Origin: Octopus vulgaris | Taxonomy: Eukaryota | Assembly: GCA_951406725.2 (NCBI GenBank) | Contig: OX597839.1 | Location: 11,966,001-12,030,000 of the forward strand | Length of the DNA: 64,000 nt | Direction of reading: 5' to 3' | Shown: positions 8,623 to 59,038 of the stretch, one piece after another | How the letters are laid out: each line of letters opens with the position of its first letter | Position numbering within the stretch: the stretch's first letter is position 1 | Notes under the pieces: generated by a model | What the model was told of the DNA's origin: nothing | Seen by the model: only the letters and a program-made list of their open reading frames with translations | Database searches by the model: none | Translations under genes and position numbers: made by a program

Positions 8623-8800
8623 TATATATTAAGTATAGGAAAGAATGGAGCTGAACGAAGATTTACCAAAATTCCTTTATTTTATTTTCGACATATGTTT
8701 CGAAATCTCTTTGCAGATTTCGAAACATATGTCGAAAATAAAATAAAGGAATTTTGTTAAATCTTCGTTCAGCTCCATTCTTTCTTATACTTAATATATA
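8623..8800. repeat. Near-perfect hairpin, ~86-bp arms with a 6-nt loop
   Basis: ..TTCGACATATGTTTCGAAATCT-ctttgc-AGATTTCGAAACATATGTCGAA..; the arms extend out to TATATATTAAGTATA. Confidence 0.95.
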
Positions 8801-10174: not shown

Positions 10175-10500
10175 TGTATGTATGTATGTATGTATGTATG
10201 TATGTATGTATGTATATAAATAAATCTTTAGGTAAATATATCCAATAAGAATATTATATACTGAATTTATATTGAGTACTTCATTGTATAAAAATATTAA
10301 TACTATTAAAGTATTTATATATTTAATACGAGCGATATATACATATATTTTTAAATAATATATTATTATTATTAATATAAGGAAATCAATATTGAACTCA
10401 ACATAAAGATGTACTCGTGTGAAAGACCTTGTATTAAAAATATATAAAAATAAATAAATAAATATTTGGTAGTTTCAAAGTTTTGAATTGATTTTTTGAG

Positions 10501-10592
10501 CATCTTACGATCGTTTCGCAGAAGAATTGTCCCTATAATGAAATCCTATATTGATAAGCATTTATAGACAACCCTCCTGCTCTTCAGATATA
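10501..10592 (-). ncRNA. Type I hammerhead ribozyme motif with extended stem II
   Basis: CTGAAGA-GCAGGAGGGTTGTC...GACAATTCTTCTGC-GAAA-CGATCG-TA-AGATG. Stem II is 14 contiguous bp with three G-U pairs, and stem III is palindromic. Confidence 0.8.
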
Positions 10593-10836
10593 TTAGATAT
10601 AAATATTGTATAATATATATCGAATGATAGTTTTTAAAAAATTGTAAAATGGTGTTTGTTTGAAATGTAAAATAAAAATCAAAAATTACTACTTTTGATG
10701 AGAGTCTTTTTAAATCCATATATATTTCCTTGGTTATTCTACTGCGATAATTCATAATATTCAGATTCAAAATCCGTCATATTATCTTGCATTCCAGTAT
10801 AGTTCATATAGTTAGTATAGTTGAACTATATGAACT

Positions 10837-11242
<406 letters not shown>

Positions 11243-18689: not shown

Positions 18690-19872
18690 AAAAGCAATAA
18701 AGATTCAAGTTAATTTAAATGAATTTACTTGAATATGGTACCTAACTTAGATGCACCAAAAAAACTATACTGATTTAACAATACAGTAATGTGGGGTGAT
18801 TATAAGCGAGAATGAAGCAACAAGAATGGATAGGTTTTTAGTACAATCGTTTCATACAAGGACAGGTTTTATTAAAAGTTGCAAAAATTACAGCATATAA
18901 ACGTGTCCCGTACTCATCAGCTAAAATACATGTGAGTTCTCTAGACATCCTAGTGGTTGAGGCTATACTCATGAAGTAATGTAGATAATTAAGTAACATA
19001 AACAGATTTCAAAAGTTCATTAAAGTTCTTTAAAGATGATGTACAGTCTTATCACAGAATTTTAAAAAAGTTTTAATAGCATCACAGAGGAGGTGACCTA
19101 ATCCATAGTGCACATATGAATTTCCAGAGATATGATGAGGGATTACATACTCACAGAAGACAAATTTATCCATTGTTAATTACAACGAGGTGGGTTTCAA
19201 TTCCTGCTTATTAGCATTACAGAGAGGGTGAATTAATCCTTTGTATAGATGCACAATTTCCAATGGTGTAGATGTAAATTTCCAGAGAAATGAAGAGGAA
19301 TTTCATATTCACAGGCGATAAATTTATCAATGGTTGAACACAATGAGGTAGGTATGAATTCTTGTTATATGATTAGGCATTTGCCACATTAATCACATTA
19401 CTGCTATTTACAAGAGGCTGTAGCTATTTAACTTTTAAAGGCTGAAGGGCTTTCTAGAGCGGTATAGAATAGAAAAGGGAAGGGAATAGAAGAAAAGAGA
19501 GAAAATAAAGGAGGAGGGAGCAAAAAGGGGGGGCGAGGGGGACTAAAAGAGAAGAGAAAAGGAAAAAGAGAATAAGAAGAAGAAAAAGAAAAAAGAGAAA
19601 AGAGAAAGAAATAGGGAAGGAAGGGAAAAAAGAAAAAAGAAGAAAGAAGAAAGAAAAAGAAAAAAAAAGAGGGTTCTAGTTATACAGAAGAATTAGTAGA
19701 CGGCAAGTCTGGTTTTAATTTACAGGCATCTAGGAACTAGAGGAGAATATTATTCTTTGACCAGTAAAACAGCTATATGCTGTAATTTTTATATGCTGTA
19801 ATTTTTGCAACTTTTAATAAAACCTGTCCTTGTATGAAACGATTGTACTAAAAACCTATCCATTCTTGTTGC
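18690..19872 (-). mobile_element. PLE-like terminal region with a hammerhead and an inverted partial copy of its 3' end
   Basis: Bounded by (TA)n on both sides. 19788-19872 is the reverse complement of ~18817-18901. Confidence 0.7.
18836..18926 (-). ncRNA. Type I hammerhead ribozyme with canonical core and very long stem II
   Basis: TTTTAG-CTGATGA-GTACGGGACA...TGTCCTTGTAT-GAAA-CGATTG-TA-CTAAAA, with a perfect 6-bp stem I. Confidence 0.88.
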
Positions 19873-22758: not shown

Positions 22759-22965
22759 GTGACCGCGTGTGTACCGTTGGCGATTTTTTTCCTCCGTTTT
22801 CCCTTCTTTAGATCTTTCCTTTTCCTAGGTTTCTGACGAAGAGCTCCTCTCGAAACGTTAAACCCTCCTTCTTTCCTTCCTTCCTGAGCGTCCAATAATA
22901 GTATATTTTTTCCACGTCCTCACGTTGTTGCGTTTTCTCTTTGTGTTTTCATGTTTGGATTAAGT
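22759..22965 (+). mobile_element. Family H1 pLTR-like element with intact hammerhead at 22828-22864
   Basis: GGTTT-CTGACGA-A-GAG-CTCCT-CTC-GAAA-CG-TT-AAACC. Confidence 0.88.
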
Positions 22966-32699: not shown

Positions 32700-32898
32700 G
32701 AGTTAATCCAAACAGGAAAACACAACAACGCGAGGACGTGGAACAAGTATAGTATTATTGGACGCTCAGGAAAGAAGGAAAGAAGGAGGGTTTAACGTTT
32801 CGAGCGGAGCTCTTCGTCAGAAACATAGGAAAAGGAAAGATCCAAAGAAGGGAAGATGGAGGAAAAAAATCGCCAACGGTTCACACGCGGTCACATTT
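32700..32898 (-). mobile_element. Family H1 pLTR-like element with intact hammerhead at 32790-32824
   Basis: GTTT-CTGACGA-A-GAGC-TCC-GCTC-GAAA-CG-TT-AAAC. Confidence 0.9.
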
Positions 32899-41221: not shown

Positions 41222-42161
41222 ATATAACGGGAAGCTTTATGAAATTAGACAAAAGACGAAGGCAGGTGGAAAACAAACGAACAATTGTATTAGTATGGCG
41301 CTCAGGAAATATAAATAAAACAAGTCTTTAACGTTTCGAGCCTACGCTCTTCAACAGAAAGATACACAGAAAGAAAAAAAACACAGAAAGAAGGAGAGAG
41401 AAAAAAATGCGTGCAGTAACAAACGAATCAACATGGCGATCTGATTTCGGCCAGAGGTCAAAGATCAAACATGAGACGCGAGAGCGAAATAAGGGGAGAT
41501 AATAGGGTTGATAATAGGGTTGAGGGACCAGCTAATAGTGCGTAGGAGGGGTCTGGACGTGTGTATGTATAGGGTTGGTGTATGTATTAGTATGTATAAG
41601 GGTGTGTGTGTGTGTGTGTGTGTGTATGAGAGAGTATTAGTGCGTAGGATTGGTCTGGACGTGCGTATGTATGGGGTTGGTGTATGTATTAGTATGTATT
41701 AGTACGTATTAGTATGTATAAGTGTGTGTGTGTGTGTATGTGTGTGTATGTGTGTGTGTGTGTGTATGAGAGAGTATAAGTGCGTATGAGGGGTCTGGAC
41801 GTGTGTATGTATAGGGTTGGTGTATGTATTAGTATGTATTAGTATGTATTAGTACGTATTAGTATGTATTAGTTGGTGTATGTATTAGTATGGCACATCA
41901 TATATGATGTGATGTGTAAAGTCGTGTGGTGTAGTGAGGAGAAGAGGGGGGAGAAGAGGGGGGAGAAGGGGAGGGGGAGAAGAGGGGGAAGAGGAGAGGA
42001 TGGGGGAGAGAGAGGAGGGGAGAAGGAAGAGGAGGAGGGGGGAGGAAGGAGGAAAGAGGGAGAGGGGGAGAGAGAAGGGGAGTGAGGGAGTGAGGGAGCG
42101 GAGGGAAGGGGAAGAGGGAAGGAGGGAGGGAGAAAGAGGGAAGAAGGGAAGGGGAGTAGGG
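41222..42161 (-). repeat. 3' pseudo-LTR
   Basis: Runs from ATATAACGGGAAGCTTTATGAAA to AAGGGAAGGGGAGTAGGG and is near-identical to 45750-46697. Confidence 0.95.
41325..41362 (-). ncRNA. Minimal hammerhead (CUGUUGA variant) in the 3' pLTR
   Basis: TCTTT-CTGTTGA-A-GAGC-GTAG-GCTC-GAAA-CG-TT-AAAGA. Confidence 0.82.
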
Positions 42162-45135
42162 GTGAAAGGATGAAGGACTGAAGAAGTAGGGGTCGGGGGG
42201 GGAAAGGATAGGTGAGGAGGGGGGAGAGGGGGTTAGATGAGGAGGGGGAGAGTTGAGACCAAATGGCGTATAAGAGCGAAGAGAGAAGATTAATTCCTGT
42301 TCACGGCGCAAACGGGAATCCGGATGGCCTCTGTGTAAGGACAAACCGAACACAGATAGGTGTTGCAAGGAGTGACCGGTGGAGCGGAAATGGCGTGAGA
42401 CCGGTGTGTCGTTCGCAAGGTGGATGTCACGAAGGTGTTCCGCGAACCGGTCAGCCAAGCGGCGTCCCGTTTGTCCGATGTACAAGGAATTGCAGAGAGA
42501 GCAAGAGATGCAATAGATAATATTGCTGGAGGTGCAGGTGAAGGAGTGGATGATGGGATAGGGTCGATGGTGGGTGCTAGTGAGGCGGGTGGTGTTGGAG
42601 AGGTAAGGGCAAGTGCGGCAACGTGGGCGGGAGCAGGGGAACGAGCCGGGTTGGGAGGTAGGGTCAGGGAAGGAGCTATGGACCAAAAGGTCTCGAAGGT
42701 TGTGGGCTCGTTTGAAAGAGGGGAGTGGTCGGTTAGGGAAGAGGTGTGAAGTGGACGGGTCGGACTGGAGATGACGGAAAGCTCGAAGAATGGTGCGTTG
42801 GAGACGTAGGGTCGTGGGGTGGTAAGTGAGGGGAAAAGGGAGGCGGGAGACTACAGGGCGGGTTCGGGGAGAGAGAGCAGATACACGGTCCACGGACCGT
42901 GCTCAGGCAAGGGCGGTGTGGATAGTGGTGAGGGGGTATCCACGTAGGGTGAAGTGGTGAGCCATACGTTGAGACTGAGTCTCAAAGTCATGGTCGTCAC
43001 TACAGAGCTTACGTAGACGGAGGAATTGGGAATAGGGGATGGAAAGCTTGGTGTGTTCTGGGTGGGAGGAAGAGGAGTTGAGGTATGAGTGTGAATCTGT
43101 GTGTTTGTAGTGAATGGAGGTGGTAAGAGTGGAGTGAAGAATGCTAACCGAAATGTCGAGGAAGGAGACAGAGGTGTTGGAGATAGTGGAAGTGAAGTGG
43201 AGGGCTGGATGGAAAGATTGGACGAAAGAGAGGAAGGAATCTAGATGTTCGCGGGAGAGTGAGGTGGCACCGATAATGTCGTCAATGTAACGACCATATA
43301 GTTCAGGAGTGGGACCAGTGAAATTAGAGAATATTTGGGCCTCAACATAGCCAACGAACAGGTTCGCATAGTTGGGGCCCATTCGCGTTCCCATGGCCAC
43401 TCCCGAGATCTGATGGTAGAACTCGCCCACGAACGAGAAGCAGTTCAGAGTAAGGACAAGTTCGGCCAGACGAACGAGTGTGGAGGTGTCAGGTACAGGG
43501 TTAGAGCGGAGGTCAAGAAAGTGTCGAAGGGCCTGCAGTCCTTCGTGGTGAGGGATAACAGTATAGAGGCTTTGGATGTCCATAGTAAAAAGGATTTGGG
43601 AGGAGCCGGGAGGAAAGGAGAAAGAGTTGAAAAGCCGGAGAGCATGGTTGGTATCGTGGATGTGGGAGGGAAGAGATGCCACTAGGGGGCAAGGACACGG
43701 TCGAGGTATTTAGAGATGAGCTCCGTGGGGCAGTTACAGGCGGAGACGATGGGGCGGCCAGGGTTGTTGGGTTTGTGGATTTTGGGGAGGAAGTAAATGG
43801 TGGGGGTACGTGGGGTTCGCACAATTAGGTTGGATGCGGTGCGGGGGAGACGGGAGGACGAGATGAGGTCGTGGACAGTAGAGGATACCGTCTGTTGGTA
43901 GCTACGTGTGGGGTTAGAGGGCAGAGGGGAATAGAAGGAGGTGTCATTGAGTTGGCGGAAAGCCTCGGCCCTATAGAGGTCCGGGCGCCACACCACTACA
44001 GCTCCACCCTTGTCAGCCGGTTTGATGATAATGTCAGCGCGCCGTTGGAGGGAACGAAGAGCCAAGAGCTCAGCCGGGGAGATGTTGAGGCGGCGTTGGC
44101 GCCTGGAGAAGTTGAACCGCTCCAATGCACGCTGACAAGCGCCCGCGAAAAGATCCACTGCTAGGATCTGGCCAGGGGCAGGCGTCCACGGGGATGGTCG
44201 GCGGCCCAGGCCAGTGAAGCAGTCCTCTTCGTTGGGTGTGGGTGGCGAGTCGTGGTAATGCGCACCCAACCGGACACGGCGCACAAAACTGTGGACATCA
44301 ACTCGCGTCTGGAATTCCTTACAGGATGGAGTGAGGGGGATGAAACGCAGACCCCTACCAAGGACGGAGCGTTCAGCCGCAGAGAGGGGAAGATCGGGGG
44401 GAATGGTAACAACAGACGGAAGTGGAGAAGGGGTGGGTGGAATAGAAGTAGGAGGGGTGGTAGGTCTCGTGGAGGTCTGAGGGGGAGGGATTGGGGAGGT
44501 GTGTGGGGGGTGGTTGGGCGGGGCAGTAGGGTTAGGTGTAGGTGGATGGAGCCTATCGGGAGGGGAGAAGGGGTTGTAGGGAGGGGCAGTGGGGTTAGGT
44601 GTGGGTGGATGGAGCCTATCGGGAGGGGAGAAGGGTGGTGGAGGAGTTGGGGTAGTGGCGTCGGGTAGGGTGGAATGGAAGAGTGATTGGAGTTTACGAA
44701 GTTTGGTATCAGAAAGAAATTGATGGAAGAGTTGATTCAAATGGATAATGAAGCGTAGCGTGTTTGGAGCATAGAGAGGCGGCAGAGAGGAGAAGAAGGT
44801 GGAGAAAGCAGGAGGAAGAAGGCGGTTGATGGCATGTAGTTTGGAGAGATTGGAGCGAATGGTGGCCCGCATAAGGCGGTAAGATGTGGTGCGGAGTATG
44901 GGTAAGATGGAAGAATCCGAGTGGAGAGCAGGGTGGAAGTGGAGGCGGAAACCTTTAGGGATGAGTCGGTGATGTAGGCAGCGGCTTAGGAAAGAGACAT
45001 GGCTAGAGAAGCGGGTTTTTTTAAAAGAAGTAGAGAGAGATTAACGGACGGCTGAAGGCAATATACAGGAAGCGAACGGAGATGATCCTTCAAACGATGA
45101 TGGAGGGTGAGGAGGTAGGACCTAGGATCCGGCAT
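41898..45135 (-). pseudogene. PLE polyprotein (N-terminal domain, reverse transcriptase, Zn-knuckle, GIY-YIG endonuclease); 2 frameshifts and 1 in-frame stop
   Basis: Reads MPDPRS.., FLSRCLHHRLIPKGF, IIKPADKGGAVVVW, YFLPKIHKPNNPGRPIVS, FTMDIQSLYT, GVAMGTRMGPNYANLF, RYIDD, FLDI, CSRPRCRTC, IYCISCSLCNSLYIGQT..RFAEH, EQELI..GLN. Breaks at ~45020 (A-run), 43682 (C-run) and 42903 (TGA). Confidence 0.96.
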
Positions 45136-55636: not shown

Positions 55637-56250
55637 CGAAAGCGATGTCGCTGCGAACGCTTGGCTGCCACAAGCCTATTATCCCTCGGCGAGCTGGCAG
55701 AAACGTTAGCACGCCGGGCGAAATGCTTAGCGGTATTTCGTCTGCGTTACGTTGTGAGTTCAAATTCCGCCGAGGTCGACTTTGCCTTTCATCCTTTCGG
55801 GGTCGATAAATTAAGTACCAGTTACGCACTGGGGTCGATGTAATCGACTTAATACCTATGTCTGTCCTTGTTTGTCCCCTCTGTGTTTAGCCCCTTGTGG
55901 GTAATAAAGAAATAGGTAACTTTTCTGACACCTCTCGACGGACGCATAGTACGACGCTGTTCGGAAAGGATCGATGGGCCACGCTTTCGCGGTCCGTTTT
56001 CGTACTGAAAATCGAGATCGAGCGAGCTTTTGCCCTTTTGCTCGACGTGTGGTTTCCGTCCACGCTGAGGTCGAGTTGTAACCGGTTGAAAGACGTACCA
56101 CCCCAGTCAAACTCCCCGACTGACACCGTTCTCGACTAAGGGTCGCTCATCAGGTGCGTCGGCGCCCGCAAGGCGTTCGACATGTATCGCATGCTTCGCC
56201 CCAGATAATGAAACACCGCTCGGCGCCGGCCCATTCACTTCTCCATCGTG
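55637..56250 (-). pseudogene. 28S rRNA fragment (peptidyl-transferase region), split by a SINE
   Basis: Minus strand reads GGGGAGTTTGACTGGGGTGGTAC, GAGGTGTCAGAAAAGTTACC | AGGGATAATAGGCTTGTGGCAGCCAAGCGTTC. Confidence 0.93.
55687..55914 (+). mobile_element. Young full-length SINE family A inserted in the 28S fragment
   Basis: GGCGAGCTGGCAGAAACGTTAGC..GAGTTCAAATTCC..GCCTTTCATCCTTTCGGGGTCGATAAA..TAAAGAAATA. Confidence 0.93.
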
Positions 56251-58912: not shown

Positions 58913-58920
58913 TGGGTGAC

Positions 58921-59038
58921 GCTTACAGCACCTAGGTTTCCCAAGCGGTCACCCATCTAAGTACTAACTAGGTTCGACGTTACTTAACTTCGGTGATCGG
59001 ACGAGAACCGGTGCTTTCGACGTGATATGGCCGTAACC
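58921..59038 (-). pseudogene. Solitary 5S rRNA copy (probable pseudogene)
   Basis: GGTTACGGCCATATCACGTCGAAAGCACCGGTTCTCGTCCGATCACCGAAGTTAAG..TAGTACTTAGATGGGTGACCGCTTGGGAAACC..GTGCTGTAAGC (~118 nt), with no oligo-T terminator. Confidence 0.92.

Follow-up and report, generated by a model that had tools for sequence, protein, structure and literature searches.

A long-armed type I hammerhead motif in Octopus vulgaris, probably a decayed copy from an old Hydra-type Penelope-like element

The closest described counterparts of the motif reported here are the hammerheads of Penelope-like elements (PLEs), and all comparisons below refer to the cited parts of the published sources. PLEs of the Hydra clade are marked by RWK, DKT, CxCX5C and CxxC/CxH protein motifs, by (TA)n targeting and by a hammerhead near the 3′ end (Craig 2021, PMC8557442). 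The Hydra hammerheads tabulated in File S2 of that study, including Hydra-1_oBim of Octopus bimaculoides, have a stem II of 3–7 bp with loops of 3–10 nt, and the nearest long arms in that table are those of two Selaginella PLE-X1 motifs (about 46–52 nt), which are marked as deviating. Minimal PLE hammerheads are described as having a palindromic stem III, cutting weakly and acting as dimers (Cervera and de la Pena 2014, PMC4209133; Weinberg 2019). The PLE hammerhead of Poseidon PAc from Anolis is reported to need protein for its activity and not to be required for insertion in vitro (Frangieh 2024, PMC11167929), and eight of nine dimer constructs are reported as inactive by Li, Clavereau and Pollet (2026, 10.64898/2026.07.22.740005). 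A literature search returned no PLE hammerheads with stem II arms of 45–80 nt; figures and supplements may record them.

Here we describe a hammerhead motif in the window, by which we mean the whole 64,000-nucleotide stretch of Octopus vulgaris DNA that was analysed (contig OX597839.1, positions 11,966,001 to 12,030,000), together with the repeat family that carries it (family A) and a comparison motif at 18.9 kb (family B). With a probability of roughly 80%, we consider the first motif to be a decayed copy of a type I hammerhead from the 3′ end of an old Hydra-type PLE and likely a poor cutter; its ancestor, when intact, would have cleaved the element's RNA after GUA, probably in dimeric form.

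Architecture of the motif and of the repeat that carries it

The motif occupies positions 10592–10501 of the minus strand and has the layout of a type I hammerhead, with CUGAAGA, GAAA and NUH in order and stem I at the open end (Table 1). Pairs 1–14 of the stem II arm are contiguous and include exactly three G-U pairs (pairs 5, 8 and 9), much as the earlier note had reported for the minus strand, and pair 15 is U-G. The predicted folding energy of the minus strand is −25.3 kcal/mol (z −3.67), which none of 200 shuffles equalled, against −12.4 kcal/mol (z −0.9) for the plus strand, and the motif pointed out in the earlier note is real. The arm of 63 nt sets the motif apart from the canonical metazoan hammerhead, which has a 4-bp helix II and a small loop docking on stem I. 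The motif is predicted to cleave itself.

Stems III and I bear on how such a motif would work. Stem III, ACGAUCGU, gives only 2 bp and a 4-nt loop in a monomer, whereas two copies are predicted to form an 8-bp duplex (−10.0 kcal/mol), in agreement with an earlier proposal that the palindrome indicates a dimeric type. Stem I of the window copy is UAUAU/AGAUG, in which the A at 10589, a rare change, produces an A-G mismatch at the second pair, adjoining the core. Two further rare changes, G at 10576 and U at 10526, produce G-U pairs in stem II. The active fold of the window copy lies 9.7 kcal/mol above its minimum-energy fold, compared with 2.6 kcal/mol in the intact copy L002, and the window copy is therefore probably impaired; the earlier suspicion that this copy may be dead points the same way. 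Three helices surround the core in the family, and the window copy has them with the A-G mismatch in stem I and a stem III of 2 bp as a monomer.

Table 1. Coordinates of the hammerhead motif, of the repeat around it and of the family B comparison motif within the window
Feature	Position	Strand	Remarks
5′-truncated 3′ fragment of family A (putative old Hydra-type Penelope-like element)	10220..10820 (about)	-	ends at TA/TACA microsatellite
14-bp inverted copy of 10800–10813	10824..10837	+	at 5′ junction; short 5′ inversion
Stem I, 5′ strand	10588..10592	-	UAUAU here; family majority UAUCU
Catalytic core, 5′ half, CUGAAGA	10581..10587	-	
Stem II arm, 63 nt	10518..10580	-	14–15 proximal pairs, internal loop, weak distal hairpin
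Catalytic core, GAAA	10514..10517	-	
Palindromic stem III, ACGAUCGU, 8 nt	10507..10514	-	
A17	10506	-	
Cleavage site as predicted, 3′ of GUA	between 10506 and 10505	-	from sequence and standard hammerhead numbering
Stem I, 3′ strand, AGAUG	10501..10505	-	
Comparison hammerhead, intact, 60-nt arm, family B	18837..18925	-	young Hydra-type element
Family B direct arm	about 18690–19775		
Family B inverted arm	19788–19872		

A descriptor scan of the window identified only this motif and the one at 18.9 kb, and the same descriptor gave no hammerhead with a stem II of at least 10 bp in 100 shuffled windows. Among the 150 of 446 Rfam matches listed for the window there is no hammerhead family, those listed being rRNA and microsatellite-driven miRNA.

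The surrounding fragment is about 77–87% identical to other copies of family A (BLAST identity, gaps counted), and a 461-bp query against the same genome returned 675 candidates, of which the 40 scored are 80–87% identical. There are several features that relate this family to the Hydra clade. First, the copies end in (TA)n, their 5′ ends vary, and many have inverted 5′ arms, some longer than the 14 bp of the window copy, so that both (TA)n insertion and inverted, 5′-truncated arms, as in the Hydra clade, are present. Second, copies extend in the upstream direction into RT and endonuclease frames that share the strand of the hammerhead (L091 and L092); L091 comprises about 3 kb of coding remnants and more than 1 kb of 3′ UTR. 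Third, the hammerhead lies in sense about 750 nt past the endonuclease stop and about 170–290 nt before two 3′ ends, and the Hydra-clade order of RT, C-terminal GIY-YIG and downstream sense hammerhead is seen in L091 and L092, as judged by motifs and by similarity to family B. Finally, the protein marks of the family are RWK (L091, L262 and L264), DKT (L091, L262, L263 and L264), YRDD, CxCX5C, VIYKC and CxxC-E..N-CxH with conserved E and N, Hydra-clade marks being seen in the linker of L092 and at the endonuclease ends of L091 and L264. Pfam returned no RT or GIY-YIG family in the frames of family A or B, and family A, with its Hydra-clade motifs, is assigned as a putative Hydra-type PLE by these motifs and by similarity to family B.

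The two 3′ ends of family A (about 10220 and 10335 in the window) lie about 110 nt apart, and among the arms caught by the search expression 19 end at the short and 11 at the extended position. The 3′ UTR contains a diverged internal duplication of about 80 bp upstream of the hammerhead (L004:1328–1408 and 1513–1592). A 41-bp hairpin (10837–10877), bounded by ACTAGC/GCTAGT and presumed to resemble Helitron-type end sequences, adjoins the element at its 5′ junction. Contigs of runs X16 and X17 that contain family A (window 10225–10830) include at least 457 labelled as organism B and at least two labelled as organism C, and the family is therefore not limited to one species label.

Several other features were observed in the window. 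A near-perfect 63-bp inverted repeat at 8646–8777 has arms with GAAACATATGTC followed by GAAAA, which correspond to a 3′ hammerhead half of a third type, also seen in L211; the repeat apparently consists of two tail fragments, arranged head to head, that are truncated inside stem II. Minimal short-arm hammerhead-like motifs with CUGACGA, a 12-nt arm and GAAACGUU are present at 22833–22859 (+) and 32794–32820 (−) and belong to one small repeat family. A second Penelope-like element at 41898–45040 (−) has three long frames and a CX4CxxC linker, with Pfam matches to RT (PF00078, E 1.9e-06) and GIY-YIG (PF01541, E 0.002); it is probably of the Neptune type, and descriptor and pattern scans found no hammerhead beside it. 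The window also contains a 28S rRNA fragment at 55915–56148 (−) and an isolated full-length 5S rRNA copy at 58920–59038 (−).

Copy-to-copy variation in family A

The pairing in each stem was followed through 53 copies of family A that cover the motif (from 56 distinct matches, with duplicate loci removed). Most copies have UAUCU/AGAUG as their stem I. An earlier expectation that the family would restore a CATCT/AGATG stem I is borne out as to pairing, pair 2 being C-G in 49 of the 53 copies, but not as to the strand itself, which is UAUCU and not CAUCU. In 36 copies both the core and four pairs of stem I are undamaged. Contigs of runs X15 and X16 mostly carry the same majority letters at 10589, 10576 and 10526, with a pairing base at 10589.

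Stem II varies from pair to pair. At pair 5, A-U is present in 51 of the 53 copies and G-U in the window copy alone, and pair 9 is G-C in 46 and G-U in three; since the family majority is Watson-Crick at both positions, the G-U pairs there are attributable to decay. Pair 8 is variable (C-U in 20 copies, G-U in 10, A-A in 7, A-U in 5, U-U in 5 and other combinations in 5) and is a mismatch tolerated in family A. The unbroken 14 bp is a property of the window copy and its subfamily, many copies having 7 bp, a mismatch and then 6 bp. At the junction the pair is G-C in 27 copies and G-U in 25, while 51 of the 53 copies retain G12 of GAAA; this one shared change fits an RNA-level constraint in the active lineage.

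The earlier note had taken the G-U pairs as a strand bias indicating selection on an RNA structure, and this claim fails. Only two of the three G-U pairs are decay events in the window copy, and rare pair states (those present in no more than two copies) comprise 10 G-U, 8 A-C, 16 other mismatches and 4 Watson-Crick pairs, the similar numbers of G-U and A-C showing no strand bias. G-U strand bias was accordingly rejected as a signal of selection. The frequency of rare substitutions is much the same in the core (12/689, 1.7%), the proximal stem II (32/1477, 2.2%), the distal arm (43/1843, 2.3%) and the flanks (36/1684 and 49/2049, 2.1–2.4%), from which we infer neutral decay after insertion. 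Uncompensated stem changes, which the earlier note had named as a refuting result, do occur in stem II across the 53 copies, yet they reflect this neutral decay and not a false fold.

Long arms across the genome and the relation between families A and B

Long arms are not confined to these two families. Two exact patterns with a 48–72 nt spacer gave 2,253 and 2,202 matches in the genome (5 and 1 in the reversed controls), about 4,450 exact long-arm matches altogether, compared with 174 (control 8) for the same core and stem III type with a spacer of 8–34 nt, although this ratio overstates the long arms because short-arm families that differ in core or in stem III loop escape the patterns. Family A contributes 21, by count, of the first 100 matches listed in one of the 48–72 nt searches. 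The arms in the examined loci fall into 30 sequence clusters that form a continuum from 10 to 77 nt (20 clusters at 43 nt or longer), with a first helix of 3–15 bp, and most fold better than shuffles; no internal loop or sequence common to these 30 clusters was found. Among the endonuclease-linked families, A, B, D, G and H have long arms and E and F short ones, labels that cover only some families because many of the 20 endonuclease-bearing loci examined have no hammerhead within reach (interrupted or long UTRs).

Evidence for maintenance of the fold comes from 25 B-type variants, in which 88% of cells pair, compared with 30–46% in slid controls. Thirteen of 26 pairs change on both sides (three in stem I, six in the proximal stem II, three of the eight in the distal helix and one in stem III), which suggests that active lineages keep the fold. 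Unguided RNAalifold retrieved stem I together with seven pairs of the proximal stem II; the distal helix was absent from its prediction. The B-type structure was drawn from the same related sequences and the changes are few lineage events, so these counts are supportive and are not a probability.

Other arrangements were also seen in the genome. A tandem non-coding repeat of 532–535 nt carries one hammerhead with a 49-nt arm per unit (L161–L166, L170–L173 and L175–L176); its arrays, often with an inverted arm, are retrozyme-like and had no endonuclease match in the loci examined. Cores with CCGAnGA (U4 to C) and short arms are present at L180, L183, L192, L179, L207 and L211, some of them downstream of Hydra-type endonucleases. 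The short-arm hammerhead of L012 is, by eye, a near match to the Hydra-1_oBim entry in File S2 of Craig 2021.

Family B is the younger comparison. It has 1,722 candidates in the genome, the 40 scored being 99–100% identical, and leads to a Hydra-type ORF with DKT and CxCX5C and open frames of up to about 980 aa. Its two 3′ ends (about 18690 and 18801) are about 110 nt apart, the inverted arm mostly stopping at the inner one, and its 3′ UTR has a 107-bp duplication upstream of the hammerhead (19105–19211 and 19263–19368); the diverged UTR duplications of both families are 70–80% identical. Insertion junctions within 2 nt of the predicted cut site gave 7 hits, of which 5 are true, compared with one hit and none true at a one-position control. 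A matched control of three positions had 4 hits, with 3 true junctions among them. There is thus no clear excess (5 against 3) that would mark a genomic cleavage footprint in family B, and two of the five cut-site junctions have inverted arms reading across the cut site.

Between the proteins of families A and B, identity is 39% across 110 residues of the endonuclease and 50% across 115 residues of the RT. Their arms have no local similarity above that of shuffles, as the earlier note had anticipated in describing the two arms as different in sequence, and their UTRs likewise cannot be aligned above chance; nor did the family A arm match any of 18 other long-arm clusters, 13–183 of 200 shuffles having scored as well. 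Because both motifs sit in related Hydra-type elements, the two cores most likely share ancestry, from one Hydra hammerhead. Trees of this genome's elements were built from the endonuclease (33 rows, fragments under 75 aa left out; open backbone) and from RT plus endonuclease (12 rows, leaving out four redundant rows and all rows of fewer than 250 columns, among them every row of the short-arm family F). Family A grouped weakly with the short-arm families E in both (81/86 and 85/91, respectively), but a clade of A and B is not rejected in the RT-plus-endonuclease tree (p-AU 0.26). The trees are compatible with one or with several lengthenings of the arm, and recurrence independent of sequence, as proposed in the earlier note, is thus a possibility.

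Interpretation and comparison with known systems

Several other readings of the locus were weighed. Selection on the window copy as an RNA structure with a function in the host would account for all three non-Watson-Crick pairs of the proximal stem II being G-U on the ribozyme strand, but only two of these are events in this copy, rare G-U and A-C states are nearly balanced across copies, stem I is mismatched next to the core, and divergence is uniform through motif and flanks; we regard this reading as largely refuted. The fragment could also be the unit of a non-autonomous retrozyme or SINE-like repeat and not a truncated autonomous element, which is very improbable: within the loci examined, coding sequence is missing from most copies of family A, and retrozymes are reported as PLE derivatives (Li 2026, 10.64898/2026.07.22.740005), but family A has variable 5′ ends and is continuous into RT and endonuclease frames, and no short head-to-tail units were seen. 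Non-LTR retrozymes consist of a short non-coding tandem unit with one hammerhead each, whereas family A is dispersed, 5′-truncated and linked to ORFs.

A different question is whether the long stem II arm is itself a selected module, either a handle for RT–endonuclease binding or a folding clamp that licenses cleavage, kept by non-autonomous repeats for mobilisation. The prevalence of long arms for this stem III type, the double-sided changes in the B-type distal helix, the 49-nt arm of the tandem repeat that lacks an endonuclease match and the reported protein assistance of a PLE hammerhead (PMC11167929) would all agree with this, but no sequence or loop common to the families was found, related families with arms of 19–29 nt spread as well, the long-arm ratio is inflated by short-arm families that the search patterns miss, and pair 8 of family A accommodates a mismatch that varies among copies; such selection seems unlikely to us. 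We are still more doubtful of a scheme in which stem II is a 45–80 nt handle that lengthened independently in several octopus-like Hydra lineages, is compensatorily kept to its tip and, when bound by the RT–endonuclease, switches cleavage on, with protein-free tandem repeats hitch-hiking. If true, it would explain protein-assisted PLE hammerheads and imply thousands of ribozymes per genome that standard descriptors miss.

We therefore favor a decayed copy of a PLE hammerhead, and published work on such hammerheads suggests how its ancestor could have acted. Tandem pseudo-LTR transcripts would bring two hammerheads together, the two ACGAUCGU strands would pair over 8 bp, and the precursor would be trimmed after GUA, possibly with help from the element's own protein. 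The long stem II would be a tolerated extension: because these hammerheads seem to lack a loop 1–loop 2 contact, the arm may be free to lengthen, provided that it folds back on itself and the junction pair is retained. The distal-helix compensatory changes in B-type arms appear to argue against complete freedom of the arm. As the genomic copy reads straight through the predicted site, it was reverse-transcribed from RNA that was uncut (or religated) there, and read-through copies together with the unenriched family B junctions speak against a simple cut-then-copy model.

The window copy itself, as a relic, matters little. Its only unusual feature is the long middle arm, which makes it a size variant within an already known type of hammerhead and which many repeat families of this genome carry. 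Given the genome-wide number of long-arm matches, the lack of an Rfam hammerhead among the listed matches for the window, and arm lengths well beyond the values tabulated for Hydra, counts of ribozymes and PLEs in such genomes are probably too low. The related families, with arms of about 20–63 nt, constitute a natural series for studying the role of PLE hammerheads and their activation by protein, a series in which family B offers near-identical young copies and long open frames.

The locus shares with the Hydra-clade PLEs of PMC8557442 a type I hammerhead with CUGAnGA and GAAA and a short, near-palindromic stem III near the 3′ end, as well as RWK, DKT, CxCX5C, CxxC/CxH, (TA)n targets and inverted 5′ arms. 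It departs from the stems in File S2 of that source in its 63-nt arm with 14–15 proximal pairs, as opposed to 3–7 bp, and the family A 3′ UTR of more than 1 kb and the element length of more than 4 kb contrast with published Hydra elements, which are generally below 3 kb. The hammerheads described in PMC4209133 are similar in their palindromic stem III, expected activity as dimers, larger-than-usual helix II, thousands of solo truncated copies and the presence of several sequence families in one genome. Enlargement of helix II in them, however, reaches 6–8 bp, and stem II usually begins on its 5′ side with an unpaired base that is missing from families A and B.

Poseidon PAc (PMC11167929) resembles the present elements in having a hammerhead upstream of two alternative 3′ ends (the ‘tail’) and insertions that read through the cut site, but belongs to another clade, has a short stem II and has a tail of 30–40 bp, compared with about 110 nt here. 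Animal non-LTR retrozymes (PMC7229834; 10.64898/2026.07.22.740005) likewise carry a type I hammerhead in a high-copy AT-rich repeat, but their tandem unit is 170–400 nt, whereas family A is the tail of a coding element; the retrozyme-like case in this genome is the separate 532–535-nt tandem family.
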